Source: an uncultured Acidobacteriota bacterium
GTDB taxonomy: Bacteria; Acidobacteriota; UBA6911; RPQK01; JAPXNP01
Assembly: GCA_963723965.1 (NCBI GenBank)
Contig: CAVRSV010000007.1
Location: 702,251-766,250 of the forward strand
Direction of reading: 5' to 3'
DNA: 64,000 nt
Under the pieces are notes generated by a model. That model was not told the origin of the DNA. It was given only the letters and a program-made list of their open reading frames with translations, and ran no database searches. The position numbers and the translations under genes are program-made. How positions within the stretch are numbered: position 1 is the stretch's first letter; every line of letters starts with the position of its first letter. Of the stretch, positions 174 to 9,996 are shown in pieces.

Positions 174-332
174 AACGTTGGAGCCGGCACTGTTGGAGAA
201 TAGCGTTTCGGGCAACACTGTGGAAGCGGATACCCGAGGACAGCCGGTCTCAGGGGGGACCAGGAAAGGCTATAATCCAACCATCAATGACTTTTGACCG
301 CAGGATCGGCAAAAACGCGAGAGGAGAGAACG

Positions 333-1502
333 ATGGATCAGTATCAGCCAAAACCTGAGCACAAATTCACATTCGGTCTGTGGACCGTCGGCAGTGTCGG
401 ATCGGACCCGTTCGGCACGGCGGTGCGCAAGGCCCTTTCGCCCGTCGAAATCGTCCACCTCCTCGCCGAGGTCGGCGCGTGGGGGGTCAATTTCCACGAC
501 AACGACCTTGTGCCCATCACGGCCACACCTGCCGAGCGGGACAAGATCGTTCGCGATTTCAAACAGGCCCTGCAGAAGACGGGCCTGGTGGTCCCAATGG
601 CCACGACCAACCTGTTCAGCGACCCGGCCTTTCGGGACGGAGCCTTCACGGCCAACGATCCGGAAATTCGGGCCTACGCTCTTCAGAAGACGATGAACGC
701 CATCGATCTCGGTGTCGAGTTGGGTGCGAAGATCTATGTCTTCTGGGGTGGTCGCGAAGGCGTCGAAAGCGACGCTTCGAAGAATCCCGCCGAGTCCCTC
801 AAACGCTTCCGCGAAGCACTGAATTTCTTGACGGACTATGTCCTCGATCAGAAGTACGACCTGAAGTTTGCTCTCGAGCCCAAGCCCAACGAGCCGCGGG
901 GCGACATCTTTCTTCCCACGGTCGGTTCCATGCTCGCCCTGATCGAAACGCTGGATCATCCCGAGATGATCGGGGTCAACCCGGAAGTCGCCCACGAACA
1001 CATGGCGGGACTCAACTTCACCCACGCCGTCGCCCAGGCCTGGGATGCCGGCAAGCTCTTCCACATCGACCTCAACGACCAGGCCTTCGGTCGATACGAC
1101 CAGGACTTCCGTTTCGGGTCGCACAACCCCAAGTCCGCCTTCTACCTGGTCAAGTTTCTCGAGGACGTCGGCTACTCCGGCTCCCGGCATTTCGACGCGC
1201 ATGCGTACCGGACCTCCGACTACGGAGATGTGAAGGAGTTCGCACGGGGCTGCATGCGAACCTATCTGATCCTGAAGGACAAGGCCGCCCAGTTCCGGAA
1301 GGACCCCGAGATCCAGGCCGTCCTGGCCGAAGTCAACGCCGACGACGGATCCATGGACGGGTTCAAGGGGAAGTACTCCGCCGATAAGGCGAAGAACCTG
1401 AAAGCCCATGCCTTCGATCGGGTGGTGCTGGGCGGTCGCGGCAAACCCTATGAACAGCTGGACCAGCTGGTGACGGAACTGTTGCTGGGAGTGCGGGGCT
1501 AA
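333..1502 (+). CDS. xylA: Xylose isomerase, class I (short, Actinobacteria-type).
   Basis: [37 protein letters not shown] signature blocks. ~389 aa from ATG at 333 ([12 protein letters not shown]). RBS gagaggagag and a TATAAT box at 271-276 upstream. Confidence 0.9.
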
Positions 1503-1518
1503 CTCGGGAACGAGGATC

Positions 1519-2076
1519 ATGGCTGAGAAACACCTCGCGCGGATGATCCGACTGGTCATCCCCGCCGTGTTGCTGACGGGCTGGCTGATTCTGGGGGCCT
1601 GTTCCACGCCTGCCGAAAACTCCCCGCAGGGGGCGGGCGTGGCCGGCCCCGAAACTCAGGCCGCAGGAAAGATTCGCGAACTGGTCCAGAGCTGGGCCGC
1701 AGATCTCAACCGGGGCAATGCGGCGGCGGCCGCTTCCATCTATGCTCCGGACGTACTCTACATGCCGCCCGGTCAACCCGCCCTGCAGGGGCGCGAGAAG
1801 GTCCAGGAGTTCCTGGACCGGCTTCTGCCGGGCGGCCGGTCCTCTTTTTCTTACAGCTCGCGAGAGATCCAAGTCTCGGGAGGACTGGCTTACGAACGGG
1901 GTGTCTTCGTGATGACGTTGACCCAGGACGGAGCGGCATCCCAGTCCGAGAACGGCAATCTGCTGCGCCTGTTCCAGCTCAGCGCCGACGGGGCCTGGCA
2001 GGTCACCCGGGAGATCTGGAATGTCAGCCTGACCTCGGCGGGCACTGAACGGCAGGGCGCTTCTTCCCGTCAGTGA
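1519..2076 (+). CDS. Lipoprotein with SnoaL-like/DUF4440 (NTF2-fold) domain.
   Basis: Signal peptide plus lipobox (LILGACS); NTF2-like motif YAPDVLYMPPGQPALQGREKVQEFL; good GC3 bias. Confidence 0.6.
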   Translation: MAEKHLARMIRLVIPAVLLTGWLILGACSTPAENSPQGAGVAGPETQAAGKIRELVQSWAADLNRGNAAAAASIYAPDVLYMPPGQPALQGREKVQEFLDRLLPGGRSSFSYSSREIQVSGGLAYERGVFVMTLTQDGAASQSENGNLLRLFQLSADGAWQVTREIWNVSLTSAGTERQGASSRQ

Positions 2077-2094
2077 TGGGAAACGGAGGATTCC

Positions 2095-2469
2095 ATGAAT
2101 GCTCACAGGTCACTTGCCCCTTGGGCCGTTCTGGGCGCCCTCATGGCCGTGTTGTTGCTTTCCGCCTGCGGCGCCCGCCGAGTCAACCAGATCTTGAGCG
2201 ACCCGACCAAGTACGCCCGCAGTGACGTGAAGCTCCAGGGCACGGTGACCGAGAGCTTCTCCGTCCTGGGCAAGGGAGCTTACCAGCTCAGTGACGGGAC
2301 GGGACGGATCTGGGTCGTCTCGAAGAGCGGAGTTCCCCGCAAGGGTGCCAGAGTGTCCGTGAAAGGCCGCGTTCGAGAAGCCTTCGATCTGGGGGGACTG
2401 GTCTCCCTTCCCAAGGGTCTGGACTCCGGCGTGGTCCTGGTCGAATCCTCGCACAAGGCCAAAGACTGA
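2095..2469 (+). CDS. Small lipoprotein (OB-fold-like, YgiW/BOF-like).
   Basis: Signal peptide with lipobox LLSACG; 124 aa; RBS ggagga upstream; coding GC3 bias. Confidence 0.55.
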   Translation: MNAHRSLAPWAVLGALMAVLLLSACGARRVNQILSDPTKYARSDVKLQGTVTESFSVLGKGAYQLSDGTGRIWVVSKSGVPRKGARVSVKGRVREAFDLGGLVSLPKGLDSGVVLVESSHKAKD

Positions 2470-2542
2470 GCTTCCGCACCCCGCACTTAGGCTCCTCCTC
2501 GTTCCACGGGGGAGCAAGGAAACGCCGAAGGGCGAAGGGCAC

Positions 2543-2577
2543 CTAGAAACTAGAAACTCGAAACTCGGAACTCAGCC
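2543..2577. repeat. Tandem heptamer repeat CTMGRAA x5 (rc GAGTTTC-like) overlapping the stop codon and last 7 codons of the olsA-like gene.
   Basis: ctagaaa ctagaaa ctcgaaa ctcggaa ctcagcc; on the reverse strand these encode ...EFRVSSF* of the PlsC-like protein. Confidence 0.7.
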
Positions 2578-3370
2578 CCTCGAACATCCCCTGCACGGCA
2601 TCGTGCAGCTCTTTGGCCAGGACGATCCGATCTCGATCCGCGCCGGATCGAGGTTCGCCGAAGACGACCTGCGCACGGATTCCGTTCAAGCCGAACAGCC
2701 GCCAAAGATGACGGACGAAGTTGTGGTCCTTCCAGTAGGCGATGTCTTCGGACACGGAAATCGCGGGATCGGAAGAACTCCAGCGGATGGCGATCGGGAC
2801 GATGGGGGCTCCGGACTCCAACACAGGCTCCAGCAGCGCAGGATGGAAACGCCGCACACCCTCGCCGCCGCTGGTCGTCCCCTCCAGGAAGATGCAGACC
2901 CGGCAGCCGGACTGAAGCCGTTCACGGATCTCGCCCATGCTCAGCAGCATCCGGCGCGTGCGCGAACGCTGGAGGAAGACCTGCTCGGTCGTCCGGGCGA
3001 GAAAGCCGATTCCCGGCCAGGATGCGATCTCCGCCTTGGCCACGAAAACTGCGGGGGCCAGCGAGGCGAGAAGCAGAATGTCCAGATAGCTCTGGTGATT
3101 GGGGACCAGGCACGAGCCGACCGGCGGCGTGGGGCCCCGAACGGTTTTCTCGAGCCCGAGCCGCCGGCAGATGGCCTCGGCCCATCGACGGAATAGCCGC
3201 AAGGCCTCCTCGCGTCCTGCCATCTTCGGCCGCCCCCATCTCCTGATCATCAGCAGGGCCAGCAGGTAGAGCGTCAGGAAGAGGACGAAACCAAGACGCA
3301 GGACCGCCCTCAGGGGGTTGGAGCGTCGCCTGCCCACGCCGACGGGAGCGCTGGAGTTCTTCATCGGCAT
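2543..3370 (-). CDS. olsA: Lysophospholipid / lyso-aminolipid O-acyltransferase (PlsC family; OlsA-like).
   Basis: PlsC motifs NHQSYLD (HX4D) and FLEGTTS; N-terminal TM helix. Lies 64 bp downstream of the olsB-like gene on the same strand. Confidence 0.75.
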   Translation of the reverse strand: MPMKNSSAPVGVGRRRSNPLRAVLRLGFVLFLTLYLLALLMIRRWGRPKMAGREEALRLFRRWAEAICRRLGLEKTVRGPTPPVGSCLVPNHQSYLDILLLASLAPAVFVAKAEIASWPGIGFLARTTEQVFLQRSRTRRMLLSMGEIRERLQSGCRVCIFLEGTTSGGEGVRRFHPALLEPVLESGAPIVPIAIRWSSSDPAISVSEDIAYWKDHNFVRHLWRLFGLNGIRAQVVFGEPRSGADRDRIVLAKELHDAVQGMFEGLSSEFRVSSF

Positions 3371-3434
3371 TCGCTAGACGACCACCCTGAGACTCGACAA
3401 AGTGACGCCCTGGGCATCCAGCATCACCAGGAAG

Positions 3435-4250
3435 TCAATGGTCCCGAACGCCCGGTCCATGGCTGGTTCGGAAAGCACCTTGGCCCCCAGCCGCAGATAG
3501 ATCTTGAACAGCTTGGGCAGGGGGATAATCCTCCGCCCGCGGCGAAGGCGTCCCCGAATGCCGGGCCGCCGGATCCGACGGCCGACAGGCAAAATCCGGC
3601 CTCGCCTCCACCAGCAACTTCTCGTCGACGGATCCTTGACGACGGAGTGTCTCGAGCGCCCACCACCCCACGGCGGGATCCGTCGAGGTGATCGAACAGC
3701 AGCCAAACAGATAACGCTGATCGTGGAGATTGAGGTAGGCCCCCAGACCCAGCCAGAGCTGCAGGAGTGCGCGCGCGTTCCGATGCTCCGGCGACAGACA
3801 GGCCCGCCCGCACTCGGTCGCCCGGGCGAAGAGCGGGCGCATCTTCTCCAGGCAGAATTCCTGCGCCGAATAGGACCCCAGCGAGGAGAGCTCGGCCTTC
3901 GCCATCGTCTGGATACGATAGGTCCCGACCACCCGTCCGGTCGTCCTCTCCACCAGCACGAGGTGGGTCATCTGCGCATCGAAGGGATCCTCGTCCAGAC
4001 CCGTCAGGGCGGACGTGGCCAGCCCCTCCCCGAGCTCCAGGTTGAAGATCTCGTAGCGCAACCTGAGGGCCAGTTCCAGGCAGCGCCGAGAACAGCAGAA
4101 ACCGGTCACATATCGCGAGCCGGGCGGGCCCTCGACAGTCAGCAGATCGATCTGCTCGCGGTAGCGCTCGAAATCGGAAACCTCACGGAGTTCCCGCATC
4201 CGGAAGGAGTCGATCGCACTCGAAACGGGCAAGAGCACCCCCTTGGGCAT
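3435..4250 (-). CDS. olsB: GNAT-family N-acyltransferase (OlsB / N-acyl amino acid synthase-like; putative-hemolysin family).
   Basis: Pattern RLRYEIFNLELGEG...GLDEDPFDAQMTHLVLVE is typical of OlsB/GlsB/NAS N-acyltransferases; 271 aa; upstream of olsA-like gene. Confidence 0.7.
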   Translation of the reverse strand: MPKGVLLPVSSAIDSFRMRELREVSDFERYREQIDLLTVEGPPGSRYVTGFCCSRRCLELALRLRYEIFNLELGEGLATSALTGLDEDPFDAQMTHLVLVERTTGRVVGTYRIQTMAKAELSSLGSYSAQEFCLEKMRPLFARATECGRACLSPEHRNARALLQLWLGLGAYLNLHDQRYLFGCCSITSTDPAVGWWALETLRRQGSVDEKLLVEARPDFACRPSDPAARHSGTPSPRAEDYPPAQAVQDLSAAGGQGAFRTSHGPGVRDH

Positions 4251-4280
4251 CCCTTCCCGGCAGCCGCATCGGCTCCGGGA

Positions 4281-5927
4281 TCATGACGCCACGCTTGGCG
4301 GATAGGTCCGGCTGAGGCGAAAGTACCTCCAGCAATCGCGCAGCAGCCGACCCGCAGATACACACGACGCACCCCGCGCGCGATTGAGCGAACCAATCCG
4401 GAACAGAATTCTGAACTGTCGGAACAACGTCTTGTAGGCCTCCCCCAGAGGCATCTCGGGATCCCAGATGTGCGTGGCCTCCGCCCCGGCACCATTGATT
4501 TCGATGATCTGAAAGTCCCGCCCCTCGGCCAGATCTTCGGGACTTCGGCTCCGCACGTCCAGCCTCCCGAAATAGAAGTCGGGCATGGAGGAGAAAATCG
4601 CGTCGAGCCGACGGGTCAGAGCCGGCGTCGCCAAACGGTCTCCCCGCCGAAACACCGCACCCTGACAGTGGTTGCCGGCAAAGACCAGGGGAAGCTGCTC
4701 TCCGGGATCGAGGATCCGGTCCAATTGCCCCTGAAACCGCCTGAAGTAGACATGAGTGAAGAACCGAGCCCGCGGATCGGCCAGGATCAGCTCCCTCAGG
4801 GAAAGACGACCGTCTCCTTCCACACGGGGAAACTCCTTGATCGTCACCGAGAAGATCTGACCTGAGGCCTCACCGGGGACACGGTAGTACAGAATGCCGG
4901 CTTCGAAAGGACCTTCCGCGAACTCCTGCAGGAGCAGCCTTTGTGCGACGGGAAAGGCGGCCACGTATCGACGAAGCTCCGACTCGTCGCGAATCAGTCG
5001 GACTCCGGCGCCGCGCTGTCCGACATCCGGCTTGGCCACGAAGGGATAGTCGAGGCCGGCCGTTTTGAGGGTTTTGCGGAGGATCGGCAGGAGCTCATCG
5101 ACGGGTCTCCCCGCCCGATCGAAGCGGATATAGCGGCACAGCAGGCCGCGCAGGGACCCCGGAACCAGATCCAGTATCTGGGCCTTCGATTCCCCGATCA
5201 TGCCCCCTGAGTAAACCGAAGGGTTCGCCGCCGTGGGCAGGGTCAGACCTCGAAAGCGCACGGACAGCCAGAGGTAGTACAGGCCGACGGGAAAGTAGAA
5301 CAGCGGAGCCGGCCAGAGCTCGAAGGCGGAGACGGCGGAGCGGACTTCCGGTGCGGCTTCACCCTTACGGCTGCGGGCGGCCAGCCTTTGAGCGACGATC
5401 AGAACCGCGAGACCGACGATCAGAACGGGCCATTTGAGGCTTCCCAGGGCCGGCAGTACAGCCTCGCCGAACTTCAGGGTCGCGGACAGGAGAAGAAAGG
5501 TCCAGACCAGGGAGGCGAAAACGACCACCAGGGCGAACCTGACGAAGGAGGCGCCAAACAGACCGGCACCGAGATAGGTCGGAAGCCGCATCCCCGGCAT
5601 GAATCTCGAGACCAGGACAGCAGTAACGAGATTGCGATCGAAAAGCCTGCGCGCCTGGGCCACCCGTGCATCCGATATCCACCCCAGGGCCAGCGTCCGG
5701 GGTCCGATCAGCCGACCCAAGCCAAACAGGCCCAGATCTCCGACCGCAATGCCGACGGAAACCCCGATGAGGGCGGTGGTAAAGCCGAGCCTGCCGTCGG
5801 CCACGAGGAGACCGCAGCCGACCGTGGTCGGATCTTCGAGGATGAAGGTGGACAAAGCGGCCACCAAACCCTGCAGAACGGGATGATCCGCCAGGGTCCG
5901 GGTCAGCTCCGCAAGCCACTGAACCAT
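4281..5927 (-). CDS. Membrane DedA/VTT-domain protein fused to a C-terminal ATP-grasp (carboxylate-amine ligase-like) domain.
   Basis: N-terminal ~230 aa are multi-TM and DedA/SNARE-associated-like. C-terminal ~300 aa have ATP-grasp motifs (FVAKPDVGQRGAGV, LLQEF, IIEINGAGAE). Start chosen at ATG 5927 (MVQWLAEL, GGGGAG RBS); the longer ORF to 6023 is possible. Only 30 bp upstream of the olsB-like gene. Confidence 0.65.
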   Translation of the reverse strand: MVQWLAELTRTLADHPVLQGLVAALSTFILEDPTTVGCGLLVADGRLGFTTALIGVSVGIAVGDLGLFGLGRLIGPRTLALGWISDARVAQARRLFDRNLVTAVLVSRFMPGMRLPTYLGAGLFGASFVRFALVVVFASLVWTFLLLSATLKFGEAVLPALGSLKWPVLIVGLAVLIVAQRLAARSRKGEAAPEVRSAVSAFELWPAPLFYFPVGLYYLWLSVRFRGLTLPTAANPSVYSGGMIGESKAQILDLVPGSLRGLLCRYIRFDRAGRPVDELLPILRKTLKTAGLDYPFVAKPDVGQRGAGVRLIRDESELRRYVAAFPVAQRLLLQEFAEGPFEAGILYYRVPGEASGQIFSVTIKEFPRVEGDGRLSLRELILADPRARFFTHVYFRRFQGQLDRILDPGEQLPLVFAGNHCQGAVFRRGDRLATPALTRRLDAIFSSMPDFYFGRLDVRSRSPEDLAEGRDFQIIEINGAGAEATHIWDPEMPLGEAYKTLFRQFRILFRIGSLNRARGASCVSAGRLLRDCWRYFRLSRTYPPSVAS

Positions 5928-6215
5928 CGCCAGTACTCCCCAGAATGAGATCCACCCCGATGCGGAGGGGGCGCTTGGGAGCAGCCACTTCCGCCGTCCG
6001 GGGTGATACCGCTTCCCCGGCAACTGTCTCTGCGGCCGGCCACGAGGTGCCTCAGCAGATTACAGTGTTTGAGCCGAATAGAAAAGCCCGGGAGCACGAA
6101 CTCGGCCGGTCCCGGCCGCCGGCGGGTGACGCGCCGCGCGAGGAGTTGCGGCGTCCCGCGATCACCCCGTAGAATCCTTGCGTCGGATAGAATCGAGACT
6201 GCCTGGAGAATCACC

Positions 6216-7385
6216 TTGAACCCCCTCGACCACGCCCTCCAACCCCACTTGAAGGAGCTGTGCAGCGTCGATTCCTCAGTGGAATTGAGCCGTCTCCCGT
6301 TGTACCGGCAGCTCTGCCCCGAGTTTGAACGGGTTCTGGGTTTCGTGCTGACCGGACAGGCGAGGCCCGGCGTGCGTCCCGCCCTTCCGCACGTCCGCGC
6401 CACGGCCTGGAACATCGAGCGCGGAATCGAGCTCGAGGGCATTACGGAGACCTTCCGTCGACATCCCCAGATCGCGGACAGCGATCTGCTGCTTCTCACC
6501 GAACTGGACTACGGCATGGCCCGCAGCCTCAACTCGAAAGTCCCCGTCGAGCTGGCCGAGGCCCTGGGGTTCGATTTTGCATTCGCCCCCTCTTACCTGA
6601 ATCTCGAAAAAGGCAGCGGACTCGAGGCCACAGCCAAGGGCTCCAATGAATTCGGTCTCCACGGAAATGCGATCCTTTCCCGCTTCCCCCTGCACGAGGC
6701 CCACTCGGTCGCGCTTCCGAACGGGAAAGACAAAATGCGTGGCAAGGAGAAGCGTCTGGGCTGCCAACGGGCGGTCATCGCCCTCGTCGACCATCCCTGG
6801 GGAAAATTTCGGGCCGTCAGCGTGCATCTCGACGCTCACTCCACCCAAAAGCACCGCATGTACCAGATGCGCCTGGTACTGGACGACCTGGACCGATTCC
6901 ACCCCGAACTCCCGGCGCTGATCGGCGGCGACTGGAACACATCAACCTACAACTCGCGCAACGCCCTTTTCTCGATCCTCGGCTACGTTCGCCGGGTGCT
7001 GATGGGGGTACGACACGTCATCCGCAATCACTATCCACACCCCGATCGCTGGTTCGAGCGTCACCTGTTCCGCGAATTGGAGCGACGGGGGTTCCGCTAC
7101 CGCGAATTCAACCAGCCCGGAGGCTGCACCCTGCACTACGACGTCGCCGATCTGGCCGCCAACGGCCGCATGGCGGACTGGATCCCCAACTGGTGCTTCT
7201 GGTTCATCAACTGGGCCCTGGCCAAAAACGACGGCCGCTGCTCCTTCAAGCTCGACTGGTTCGCGGGCCAGGGAATCGAGACCGTACCGGGTCTGGCGCC
7301 CCGCGTGATCACCGACGTCAATGCTGCAGACCGATGCCTGTCCGATCACGATCCCATCGTGCTCGATTTTCGACTTGCCCGCTGA
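6216..7385 (+). CDS. Endonuclease/exonuclease/phosphatase (EEP) family protein.
   Basis: EEP-fold motifs (WNIERG, LLTELD, GDWN, SDHDPIVLDF). TTG start at 6216 with GGAGA RBS; upstream part of the long ORF is Arg-rich noise overlapping the previous gene. Confidence 0.6.
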   Translation: MNPLDHALQPHLKELCSVDSSVELSRLPLYRQLCPEFERVLGFVLTGQARPGVRPALPHVRATAWNIERGIELEGITETFRRHPQIADSDLLLLTELDYGMARSLNSKVPVELAEALGFDFAFAPSYLNLEKGSGLEATAKGSNEFGLHGNAILSRFPLHEAHSVALPNGKDKMRGKEKRLGCQRAVIALVDHPWGKFRAVSVHLDAHSTQKHRMYQMRLVLDDLDRFHPELPALIGGDWNTSTYNSRNALFSILGYVRRVLMGVRHVIRNHYPHPDRWFERHLFRELERRGFRYREFNQPGGCTLHYDVADLAANGRMADWIPNWCFWFINWALAKNDGRCSFKLDWFAGQGIETVPGLAPRVITDVNAADRCLSDHDPIVLDFRLAR

Positions 7386-7563: not shown

Positions 7564-9996
7564 CTACGGCTCGTCGTCGCTCGCGGGCTCGGTCGGGCGA
7601 TTCTTTACGTAGCGGTCGAACCAGTCGATCATCTCGGCCAGCACATCCAGGATCGACTCGCGGGCCGCGTAGGCGTGGGCCTCTCTGGGCAGCAGGACCA
7701 GCCGGGCCGTACCGCCGAGCCCCTGAATGGCCCGGAACAGTCTCAAGGACTGCATCGGGAAGGTGCCCGAATTGTTGTCGTCCTGTCCGTGGATCAGCAG
7801 AAGGGGCTGGTTGATCCGATCCGCATGCATGAAGGGCGACATCGTGAAGTAGACTTCCGGGGCCTCCCAGAAGGTCCGCCGCTCGTTCTGGAAGCCGAAT
7901 GGCGTCAAGGTCCGGTTGTAGGCGCCGCTGCGGGCGATGCCGGCGGCGAACAGGTCCGAGTGGGCCAGCAGGTTTGCGGCCATGAAAGCACCGTAACTGT
8001 GTCCGCCGATCCCGATTCGGCGAGGATCGGCAACGCCCATGGCGACCACCTTGTCGATGGCGGCGCGCGCGTTCATGACCAACTGTTCGACGAAGGTGTC
8101 GTTGCCGTCCTTGCCGACGATGGGCATCGCCGGTCCATCCAGGACGGCGTAACCCTGGGTCAGAAAGAAGAGCTGCGAGGCCCCGCTCAGGCGGGTGAAT
8201 CGGGCGGATGAGCCACGCACCTGGGAGGCGATGTCCGGATCGTTGTACTCCCGCGGATAAGCCCACATGACGAGGGGCAACCGCTCCCCTTCCTGAGAAC
8301 CCGGCGGCAGGTACAGCGTCCCCGACAGCTCGATCCCGTCTTCTCTCCAGTACCTGATGAGTTCCTTTGTCACGCCCCGCAACTCCGGAGCCGGGTCGGG
8401 AAAGGCCGTCACCGTACGCTCGGTTCCGTCGGCGAGGTTGCGGACCCGATAGCTCGGCGGGTCCTGCCGAGTCTCGTGACGAGTCAGAAGGGTGGGCGTT
8501 CCGGGATCGAGGATGGCGGCCACGGTTTCATAGACCGCCGGAGCCGACCGAAACAGCTCCGTGGATTCCAGGGTCTGCAGATCGAGACGGGTCAGCACGG
8601 GGTGATCTCCATCGGGGGAGCCGCCAGGACCGTTCAGGAAGACGGAGTCCCCTTCCCGAAGCACCATGGGCCTGCCCGAGGCGTCTCGAACCGTCATGAA
8701 GTCGCCGGGATCGTTGTAGGCGTCGAATCGGCCTCGTTCCCAGAGCAGCCGGGCGGGCCTTGCCGGGTCGACCGGGAGATCCAGCAACCAGGTGCGCGTC
8801 CGTTGGGTGTCGCGATCCGCCTCCGAAACGAAGACTCCCTCGTCCGCCATCCAGTCCAGACCGGACAACCGCCACTGGGTTCGCATCAGTTCGGTCGCCT
8901 CGTCCTGGAAAGGTGCCTCGAGCTGCATGAGACGATCGCGGTACTCGACCTCGCGTTTCGGATCGCCTTCGTCGAGCGCCTCCTTCCAGACCAGAACCGC
9001 AGGGGCCGAGGGCTTCCACTCGTAGCTGCGCGGTCCGGTTCGCACCCCTCCAATCGGGATCCCTTCGGCCAGCGGAACCTTCGCCACCGTGAAGACCTTC
9101 TTGCCGGTCAGATTCCAGATTTCGATCTCCCGGGGAAAGAACGATTCCGGCACCACATAGGAGTAGGGTCGGACCACACGCTCGAGGAGCAGGTACTGGC
9201 CCCCGGGTGATATCTCGCTGGACCCGAAAATCCCCGGGTCCCCAAGATCCCGACGCCGACCGCTTCTGATGGAGACGACCGCCAGCTGGGACCTGAGCAG
9301 GTATTCATACATGCGCACGTCCCCCGCATCCGAGAGCAGGTCCTGATAGGTGCGCACCGGCGCCTTCGCGCCTGACGTATCCTCCTCCACGGGGCCGGTC
9401 GGCAACTCCGCGCGATCCGGCGGCCCCCCCGCCGGTTCGGCTCGAAATCGACACAGCAGGTGGATCGAGTCGGGGAACCACTCGCAGGGCCCCGAGGCCG
9501 GATTCAGGGTCGGCTCCGAAACCCGCTTCGAATGCCCGTTCTCGATGTTGGCGACCCACAACTCCGCTCCCGTGTTCCGATAGTTCACGAAAGCGATCTT
9601 CTGGCCGTCGGGCGACCAGAACGGGGTCCCCGGATTGGCGCCTTCCGGAAGCTCGATCACCTGCTCGGATCCATCTGCAACGGAAAGCACCTGCATCCCG
9701 ACGATCTGCCCGCGTCGGTCGGGGACGGGGCCCCGATTGCGGGGATTGAAGCGCTTGCCCGCCAATCGGACGCGGGGCTGGGCAAGGTCGGCGATTCCGG
9801 GCATGCCGGCACGTTGCACCAGGAGAAGCGATTGCCGACCGGGGGCGATTTGGACCTCGGGAAAAGGGGCTCGATCCAGGAGATCGACGACCATCTTCGG
9901 CGGAGTCTTGTACTCGGGCTGCGCAGCAAAAGAGTGCGAAAGCCCGGCGCCCAGCAGACAGAGCCCAAACCAGGAGAGACGGTTGCGACACTTCAT
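7564..9996 (-). CDS. Secreted S9-family serine peptidase (prolyl oligopeptidase/DPP family) with N-terminal beta-propeller.
   Basis: Signal peptide MKCRNRLSWFGLCLLGAGLS; catalytic GGHSYGAF nucleophile elbow; C-terminal alpha/beta hydrolase with D and H (LLIHGQDDNN..., REAHAY). Confidence 0.85.
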   Translation of the reverse strand: MKCRNRLSWFGLCLLGAGLSHSFAAQPEYKTPPKMVVDLLDRAPFPEVQIAPGRQSLLLVQRAGMPGIADLAQPRVRLAGKRFNPRNRGPVPDRRGQIVGMQVLSVADGSEQVIELPEGANPGTPFWSPDGQKIAFVNYRNTGAELWVANIENGHSKRVSEPTLNPASGPCEWFPDSIHLLCRFRAEPAGGPPDRAELPTGPVEEDTSGAKAPVRTYQDLLSDAGDVRMYEYLLRSQLAVVSIRSGRRRDLGDPGIFGSSEISPGGQYLLLERVVRPYSYVVPESFFPREIEIWNLTGKKVFTVAKVPLAEGIPIGGVRTGPRSYEWKPSAPAVLVWKEALDEGDPKREVEYRDRLMQLEAPFQDEATELMRTQWRLSGLDWMADEGVFVSEADRDTQRTRTWLLDLPVDPARPARLLWERGRFDAYNDPGDFMTVRDASGRPMVLREGDSVFLNGPGGSPDGDHPVLTRLDLQTLESTELFRSAPAVYETVAAILDPGTPTLLTRHETRQDPPSYRVRNLADGTERTVTAFPDPAPELRGVTKELIRYWREDGIELSGTLYLPPGSQEGERLPLVMWAYPREYNDPDIASQVRGSSARFTRLSGASQLFFLTQGYAVLDGPAMPIVGKDGNDTFVEQLVMNARAAIDKVVAMGVADPRRIGIGGHSYGAFMAANLLAHSDLFAAGIARSGAYNRTLTPFGFQNERRTFWEAPEVYFTMSPFMHADRINQPLLLIHGQDDNNSGTFPMQSLRLFRAIQGLGGTARLVLLPREAHAYAARESILDVLAEMIDWFDRYVKNRPTEPASDDEP

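Follow-up and report, generated by a model that had tools for sequence, protein, structure and literature searches.

DedA proteins are nearly universal, and a cargo has been assigned for only a few of them. MprF, in which a flippase domain is joined to a lysyl-phosphatidylglycerol synthase, uses aminoacyl-tRNA and has phosphatidylglycerol as its substrate. The ATP-grasp ligases RimK, LysX/ArgX, the G domain of cyanophycin synthetase and Ddl convert a terminal carboxylate into an acyl phosphate, to which an amine is then added, and to our knowledge no ATP-grasp ligase acts on the head groups of membrane lipids. Finally, an activity that forms cerilipin, an ornithine-taurine lipid, has been known since the 1970s without a gene. 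We have analyzed a 64,000-nucleotide stretch of DNA (contig CAVRSV010000007.1, hereafter the window) from an uncultured Acidobacteriota bacterium, in which a single minus-strand gene (4281..5927) encodes a 548-aa protein that combines a DedA membrane domain, a predicted anchor helix and an ATP-grasp ligase domain. The genomic associations of this family point to a putative, hitherto undescribed ATP-dependent reaction on aminolipid head groups.

The gene lies within a minus-strand open reading frame (ORF) that the ORF list and its translation extend over 4281..6023. An earlier note on this DNA had read a DedA domain and an ATP-grasp domain in this one ORF, which is confirmed by the Pfam VTT_dom match to the first half and by profile, AlphaFold2 (AF2) and Foldseek evidence for the second. 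That note had also preferred the internal ATG at 5927 to the TTG at 6023, again correctly. ATG 5927 is the gene start because a Shine-Dalgarno-like GGGGAG (5936..5941, minus strand), of which GGGG is kept in the related locus L001, is found 8 nt 5' of it, because all 26 aligned homologues start at the equivalent Met and none has an N-terminal extension, because the gene call for P0001, a 97%-identical homologue, gives 548 aa, and because the 32-codon in-frame extension from TTG 6023 (5928..6023, minus strand) is neither conserved in L001 nor free of gaps, an 8-column alignment gap breaking the frame there. We therefore judge this extension to be noncoding 5' leader. L001 is the closest genome relative of the window, with 74% protein identity for the fusion, and the same 548-aa gene is found in the 97%-identical contig L082. 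The AT skew of the plus strand reaches 0.25 in the bin 4001-6000, which coincides with the fusion gene, as compared with a range of -0.12 to 0.13 over the rest of the window; this probably reflects the T-rich (Phe/Leu-rich) coding strand of the gene.

The AF2 model of the fusion (mean predicted local distance difference test [pLDDT] of 84.9) and the alignment of homologues reveal that what the earlier note had described as some 230 aa of DedA-like transmembrane segments consists of three pieces, only the first of which is DedA: a DedA core (aa 1-185; 5373..5927), a variable linker (aa 186-206; 5310..5372) and an extra hydrophobic helix rich in aromatic residues (aa 207-224; 5256..5309), all on the minus strand like the ATP-grasp carboxylate-amine ligase domain that follows (aa 225-548; 4281..5255). 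The notion of a ligase tethered at the membrane, also put forward earlier, we count as upheld.

The DedA module is collinear with UptA-type (COG0586-like) DedA proteins. It displays helices across aa 2-185 in the AF2 model and matches Pfam VTT_dom (PF09335) at aa 39-148 (E 1.4e-12, 48.6 bits vs. a cutoff of 33.9), and its top NCBIfam match is the undecaprenyl-phosphate (UndP) transporter UptA (NF052604), at 30.2 bits, far short of the equivalog cutoff of 250. A PDB sequence search with the DedA half returned no relative. Among 27 homologues, residues E31, D32, R108, P111, G112 and R114 are invariant, with a RFxPGxR-x6-AG pattern, and position 44 is mostly acidic. The acidic pair and the two arginines six residues apart match the pattern of residues essential in YqjA, E39/R130/R136, together with D51 (10.1101/2021.10.18.464800), and that of the key residues of UptA, E32/R112/R118 (PMC11474028). 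The domain thus retains the acidic and arginine residues required by DedA transporters, and a putative role would be lipid flipping or scrambling.

As for the C-terminal half, no curated Pfam or NCBIfam ATP-grasp model matches it at threshold, and the cutoffs of the RimK family are not reached either (PF08443, 13 bits vs. 21; TIGR00768, 19.4 vs. 143.4). A profile built from 27 sequences, when compared with the PDB, finds the RimK-domain protein 8fxh (E 1e-5), CphA2 (7ta5), cyanophycin synthetases and Ddl, and Foldseek matches the model to cyanophycin synthetase, Ddl and GshAB with E values down to 8.6e-9 and a probability of 1.0, the top matches in sequence and structure being 8fxh, 7ta5, 7wac, 5k2m, 3vpb, 4iwx and 3r23. 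Four motifs contain residues that are invariant in the 27 homologues, namely K299 (VAKPD), G303/R305/G306/G308 (GQRGAGV), R455/D457 (FGRxD) and E476/N478 (EINGAG), and these ATP/Mg2+ motifs align to their CphA2 equivalents. Because of the profile matches, the AF2 model, the Foldseek results and the invariant motif residues, we conclude that this half is an ATP-grasp module of the RimK/LysX/Ddl-like kind, with a complete ATP/Mg2+ site. In both the alignment and the AF2 model, the N-terminal pre-ATP-grasp substrate domain is missing, and the central domain is preceded by the membrane helix and ~40 residues. The similarity to Ddl does not extend over the full length of that enzyme: the PDB profile matches to Ddl cover only ~50-80 residues (E 0.0025-0.8), and the AF2 model has no Ddl N-domain.

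The linker, which we read as disordered, is predicted with low confidence (pLDDT <50 at aa 186-194), varies in length between homologues and abounds in acidic residues. The helix that follows, with consensus FEFWPPxxFYxPVxxYYxWLAxRxR and invariant F210, Y211 and P213, is uncharged, aromatic and no more than moderately hydrophobic, and its Kyte-Doolittle hydropathy, calculated by hand over aa 204-224, is ~0.9, which is below the 1.4 threshold of the scan. In 117 stand-alone ligase homologues, the flanks of this helix are positive on both sides (K+R 3.6 vs. D+E 1.8 in the N-terminal tail, and RxR after the helix), and since such charge is found at both ends, the helix is probably a monotopic or reentrant membrane anchor and not a full span. 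Charge counts over 122 homologues of full length give 6.2 K+R and a net charge of +4.1 for the loop at aa 72-98 and a net negative N terminus, which together fit a DedA core with its N terminus out and its C terminus in, and thus a cytoplasmic linker. This is the orientation predicted for UptA, where a retained formyl-Met supports it (PMC11474028), whereas a model of YqjA places the N terminus inside (10.1101/2021.10.18.464800). By our own count of the three spans in that N-in model, the DedA C terminus would be outside, and the extra helix would then need to cross the membrane completely. The ligase would hence be in the cytoplasm under both models, and in the periplasm under neither, and the evidence favors its location on the cytoplasmic surface of the membrane, as the use of ATP requires.

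How widespread is this architecture? Our first homologue search gave >1000 matches, the best 120 of which are all 541-572 aa long with full coverage, and a genome scan found relatives encoded in 446 species genomes, from Acidobacteriota, Hydrogenedentota, Sumerlaeota, Planctomycetota, Nitrospirales, Myxococcota, Desulfobacterota, Bdellovibrionota, Verrucomicrobiota and Proteobacteria. A search with the ligase half alone, run without filters, gave 1143 clusters, formed at 50% identity, with E ≤ 1e-30. We fetched 80 genome loci, on which all neighborhood counts below are based, and found a single fused ORF in 71 of them. In several Proteobacteria (for example, L053, L059, L060, L067, L077 and Acidisoma cladoniae, L081), DedA (~195 aa) and ligase (~370-390 aa) are encoded by separate adjacent genes. 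The split pairs break within the linker (aa 186-206), and every stand-alone ligase carries the equivalent of the aromatic helix at its own N terminus. The conserved unit is therefore a DedA domain plus an anchor helix with ATP-grasp, fused or paired, and the constant adjacency of the separate genes speaks for a functional pair rather than a missed stop.

The same observations dispose of the idea that the fusion is an artefact, introduced in assembly or annotation when two genes were joined by a lost stop or a frameshift. The existence of split pairs in Proteobacteria, and a 1-nt indel in a neighboring gene of this very window (see below), could be held in its favor, but the >1000 homologues with the best 120 full length and fused, the single ORF in 71 of 80 loci and the same 548-aa gene in the 97%-identical L082 lead us to exclude it. 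By the same token, the possibility raised in the earlier note that homologues would always have the two domains as separate genes is contradicted by these fused proteins, the split forms always being adjacent. The gene is thus real and widely conserved, and belongs to a large, uncharacterized family.

The description of the architecture as unusual stands for the literature and falls for metagenomes, in which it is common. Literature searches combining DedA with ATP-grasp, DedA with ornithine lipid, or ATP-grasp with SNARE-associated returned nothing relevant, and in the excerpt of one account of DedA proteins (PMC10127716), the fusion partners named are rhodanese, PAP2 and pyridine-nucleotide-disulfide oxidoreductase, ATP-grasp not being among them. 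Larger relatives (830-1121 aa), in which an alpha/beta-hydrolase is fused to the N-terminal side of DedA and ATP-grasp, are P0289, P0311, P0323, P0345, P0351 and P0370, one of which has TANGO2, hydrolase, DedA and ATP-grasp. P0258 has a ~420-aa N-terminal region without a Pfam match and no DedA domain. Stand-alone homologues, which NCBI names "D-alanine--D-alanine ligase," are abundant in Acetobacteraceae, where the named matches are only metagenome-assembled genomes of this family, Rhodopila and Acidisoma. Among Bdellovibrionota, we looked for cultured carriers and found none with a name.

The decisive context, which is missing from the earlier note, is provided by the two genes downstream. 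The fusion is the first gene of an operon in which it is followed after ~30 nt by an OlsB-like N-acyltransferase (3374..4250, minus strand; GNAT, Acetyltransf_5, Pfam E 2.3e-25), and then, after a 3-nt gap that places its start 4 nt after the preceding stop, by an OlsA-like lyso-aminolipid O-acyltransferase of the PlsC family (2543..3370, minus strand; Pfam Acyltransferase E 1.1e-24). The NCBIfam scores of the two proteins, 86 bits vs. 350 for OlsB and 101 vs. 300 for OlsA, are well under the equivalog cutoffs. The OlsB-like gene has an apparent 1-nt insertion at 3520-3528 (minus strand), where the window reads GAGGATTATCCCCCTGCCC and L082 reads GAGGATT-TCCCCCTGCCC, and L001 encodes EDYPLPKLF in one frame at this site. 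Consequently, ORF 3435-4250 runs into unrelated sequence at its end, and it is the frame of ORF 3374-3706 that encodes the conserved C terminus of ~50 aa (LPKLFKIYLRLGAKVLSEPAMDRAFGTIDFLVMLD...VVV*). In the 97%-identical L082, the gene is intact (291 aa), and the frameshift in the window reflects either a mistake made in sequencing or assembly or a mutation that has recently inactivated the gene.

The link to aminolipid genes recurs in other phyla. Among the 66 informative loci, that is, those of the 80 with ≥1.2 kb of downstream sequence, 41 have either an OlsB-like gene or a ~600-aa OlsF-like bifunctional synthase at ≤5 kb from the fusion, and these come from Hydrogenedentota, Sumerlaeota, Acidobacteriota, Planctomycetota, Nitrospirales and Bdellovibrionota. 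Other recurrent neighbors are DinB_2, TANGO2/NRDE and alpha/beta-hydrolase genes, the TANGO2/NRDE and DinB_2 genes being directly upstream of the fusion in many loci of Hydrogenedentota and Sumerlaeota.

This context bears on two other explanations. The first, which we find improbable, is that the protein works on cell-envelope precursors carried by UndP, with a DedA domain that would recycle this carrier or flip it and an ATP-grasp module that would couple an amino acid or amine to a carboxylate of the peptide or uronic acid linked to the lipid. UptA is the top NCBIfam match of the DedA domain and its arginines are kept, and the stand-alone homologues bear a Ddl name, with Ddl high in the fold searches. 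However, the score against UptA is a small fraction of its cutoff (30 vs. 250), the Ddl N-terminal domain is absent, and what recurs in the 80 neighborhoods is aminolipid acyltransferases, no peptidoglycan or polysaccharide genes recurring among them. The second, to which we give very little credence, is that the enzyme is an N-acyl-amino-acid synthase, in which ATP-grasp would activate a (3-hydroxy) fatty acid as acyl phosphate and join it to an amino acid or taurine. The outcome would resemble that of OlsH, a precedent for lyso-ornithine-lipid synthesis that depends on ATP and is independent of an acyl carrier (PMC12971839), and about a third of the loci indeed have no OlsB-like gene nearby. 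Such an activity would nevertheless be redundant where an OlsB-like or OlsF-like N-acyltransferase adjoins, which is usual, and the nearest structural relatives of the ligase extend the carboxylates of amino acids or peptides, not fatty acids.

A group II pyridoxal phosphate-dependent decarboxylase is found in 14 of the 80 loci, from Desulfobulbaceae, Myxococcota, Acidobacteriota and ten Bdellovibrionota genomes. In the PDB it comes closest to human cysteine sulfinic acid decarboxylase (CSAD; 2jis, E 2.4e-110), with GADL1 and GAD65/67 ranking behind. The selectivity triad of CSAD we take to be F94/S114/Y116 in the numbering of 2jis, and by our own reading of the alignment with 2jis the Myxococcota decarboxylases have F/S/Y at these three positions. 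In Bdellovibrionota, a cupin precedes the decarboxylase part of the protein, and its profile hits cysteine dioxygenase (CDO; 3eqe, E 8e-11), the two being combined in single ~540-aa proteins with a CDO-like cupin and a CSAD/GAD-like part (L057, L061, L063, L065, L068 [2941-4566, minus strand], L069, L070, L072, L075 and L076), which would represent a predicted one-protein route from cysteine to hypotaurine. Small YHS-domain and DoxX-like genes flank these Bdellovibrionota genes. In L054, the CSAD-like gene, the fusion, the OlsB-like gene and the OlsA-like gene follow each other in this order on one strand.

Taken together, this evidence is consistent with a two-module inner-membrane enzyme, in which the ligase amidates the carboxylate of an aminolipid head group and the DedA domain handles the lipid, a function to which we give an even chance. 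We propose aminolipid amidation because the relatives of the ligase activate carboxylates, because a lipid carboxylate would be available at the membrane, and because an anchor takes the place of the substrate domain. In this scheme, the OlsB-like and OlsA-like enzymes would make a (lyso-)aminolipid with a free alpha-carboxylate at the membrane surface. The cytoplasm-facing ligase would phosphorylate this alpha-carboxylate with ATP, as RimK, LysX and the G domain of cyanophycin synthetase do with a C-terminal carboxylate, and would then amidate it with an amine, likely hypotaurine or taurine where CDO/CSAD-like genes adjoin. The product would be a head-group-extended aminolipid of the cerilipin type, and the DedA domain may present the lipid substrate to the ligase or flip the anionic product to the outer leaflet.

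According to a 2026 review (PMC12971839), taurine transfer onto ornithine lipid is ATP-dependent, its gene is listed as unknown, and in enzyme assays the activity used hydroxylated ornithine lipid rather than free ornithine. The family of DedA with membrane-anchored ATP-grasp could be the missing ATP-dependent enzyme that joins taurine, hypotaurine or some other amine to the carboxylate of ornithine-type aminolipids, in which case it would provide the first aminolipid-dedicated DedA coupled to a cargo-making enzyme; we offer this identification tentatively, and would lean against it rather than for it.

A different view of the ligase, which we regard as unlikely, is that its product is a soluble precursor of the head group, formed at the membrane, for example a dipeptide or a conjugate of an amino acid with taurine, which the OlsB-like enzyme would go on to N-acylate, the DedA domain importing a substrate or exporting the finished lipid. 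The aminolipid and taurine-supply genes fit this as well, the OlsB-like neighbors are far enough from canonical OlsB (86 vs. 350 bits) that they could accept an unusual head group, and many ATP-grasp relatives are soluble amino-acid ligases (Ddl, BacD, L-amino-acid ligases). Yet a soluble precursor would need neither a conserved anchor helix nor an obligatory DedA partner, and the assayed taurine transfer took the lipid itself as acceptor. Artefact aside, the three alternatives are less well supported than a head-group ligase.

Several points weigh against the aminolipid head-group ligase that we prefer. The functional claims for the family all come from comparative genomics, and the orientation of the ligase at the membrane is derived from charge statistics. 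About one third of the informative loci have no aminolipid gene nearby, and these include the sole cultured example, A. cladoniae, where no OlsB/OlsA gene is found near the DedA/ligase pair. By our own reading, the decarboxylases of L054, L024 and Bdellovibrionota do not have the exact CSAD triad. Within the 64-kb window, there is no decarboxylase, DinB or TANGO2 gene, so that the amine used here is a guess, and the OlsB-like and OlsA-like scores, which are far below the equivalog cutoffs, do not point to a particular head-group amino acid. In A. cladoniae (CP126994, L081), a gene of the fatty-acid-hydroxylase family (PF04116; 4115-5092, minus strand) is located ~3 kb from the split pair (3,755,864-3,757,554 of CP126994); OlsE, the ornithine-lipid hydroxylase, belongs to the same superfamily.

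If a head-group ligase is what the family encodes, membrane lipid head groups would be a new class of ATP-grasp substrate, and a DedA domain fused to a ligase within an aminolipid operon would offer a concrete candidate cargo for a DedA protein. The family would also be a specific candidate for the gene of ATP-dependent taurine transfer onto ornithine lipid. Because it is large and frequent in phyla about which little is known (Hydrogenedentota, Sumerlaeota, Acidobacteriota and Bdellovibrionota), it could point to environmental membrane lipids that have so far escaped recognition, which would be free of phosphorus and might be sulfonated.

The remainder of the locus can be described briefly. 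Upstream of the fusion, a conserved intergenic block, CTTTTCTATTCGGC-N8-TGTAATCTGC (6055..6086, minus strand; 32 nt), represents the one long run of identity with L001, the intergenic alignment being diverged outside it, and may be a promoter or operator. A scan of 2000-6400 for the sigma-70 consensus gave no match, in this block included, an Rfam search of the leader region gave none either, and the terminator-like sites in 2000-6400 are three, fewer than the 4.0 expected from shuffled sequence. The divergent gene of the endonuclease/exonuclease/phosphatase (EEP) family (6003-7385, plus strand), which the earlier note had brought in as context, loses that relevance, being kept beside the fusion only in L001 (80% identity). 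Its true start is probably well downstream of GTG 6003, because the match in L001 begins ~164 nt from the start of the fusion. Beyond it, 7564-9996 (minus strand) encodes an 810-aa protein of the S9 prolyl-oligopeptidase family with a PD40 repeat, the top NCBIfam match of which is an Atxe2-type lasso-peptide isopeptidase (101 bits vs. a cutoff of 400). We have rejected both this S9 peptidase and the EEP gene as candidate partners of the fusion, since L001 alone keeps them beside it. We likewise rejected ORFs 1363-2106 and 270-1607 (both minus strand) as operon genes, on account of their Arg/Gly/Pro-rich, antisense-type composition and their lack of Pfam or family matches; the real genes of 270-2106 are probably on the plus strand, for example 1519-2076, with a lipoprotein-type signal start (…LILGAC).

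How does the fusion compare with known systems? With UptA/YqjA-type DedA proteins (COG0586) it shares a VTT domain with two reentrant helices, and its E31/D32 and R108/R114 are collinear with E32/R112/R118 of UptA; it differs from them by being coupled, covalently or genetically, to an ATP-grasp ligase, and the substrate of its DedA domain is probably an aminolipid, not UndP. With the clade of RimK, LysX-ArgX, the G domain of cyanophycin synthetase, CphA2 and Ddl it has the fold and the ATP/Mg2+ motifs in common, whereas it has a membrane anchor helix in place of the pre-ATP-grasp N-domain, and its carboxylate substrate would be a membrane lipid. Beside the fusion stands the equipment of the OlsBA and OlsF synthases, a GNAT and PlsC pair or a ~600-aa bifunctional form, although, as noted, the neighbors in the window score well under the corresponding equivalogs. 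In comparison with cerilipin synthesis in G. cerinus, the window lacks a taurine-synthesis gene, but an ATP-requiring amidation of an aminolipid carboxylate fits a membrane ATP-grasp enzyme beside OlsB/OlsA and CDO/CSAD-like genes, and the stand-alone ligase homologues abound in Acetobacteraceae. MprF, finally, is built from unrelated folds and uses aminoacyl-tRNA rather than ATP and a free amine, on phosphatidylglycerol, and yet it offers the same overall design as we propose here, in which a cytoplasm-facing enzyme that modifies lipid head groups is fused to a multipass domain that translocates the modified lipid.

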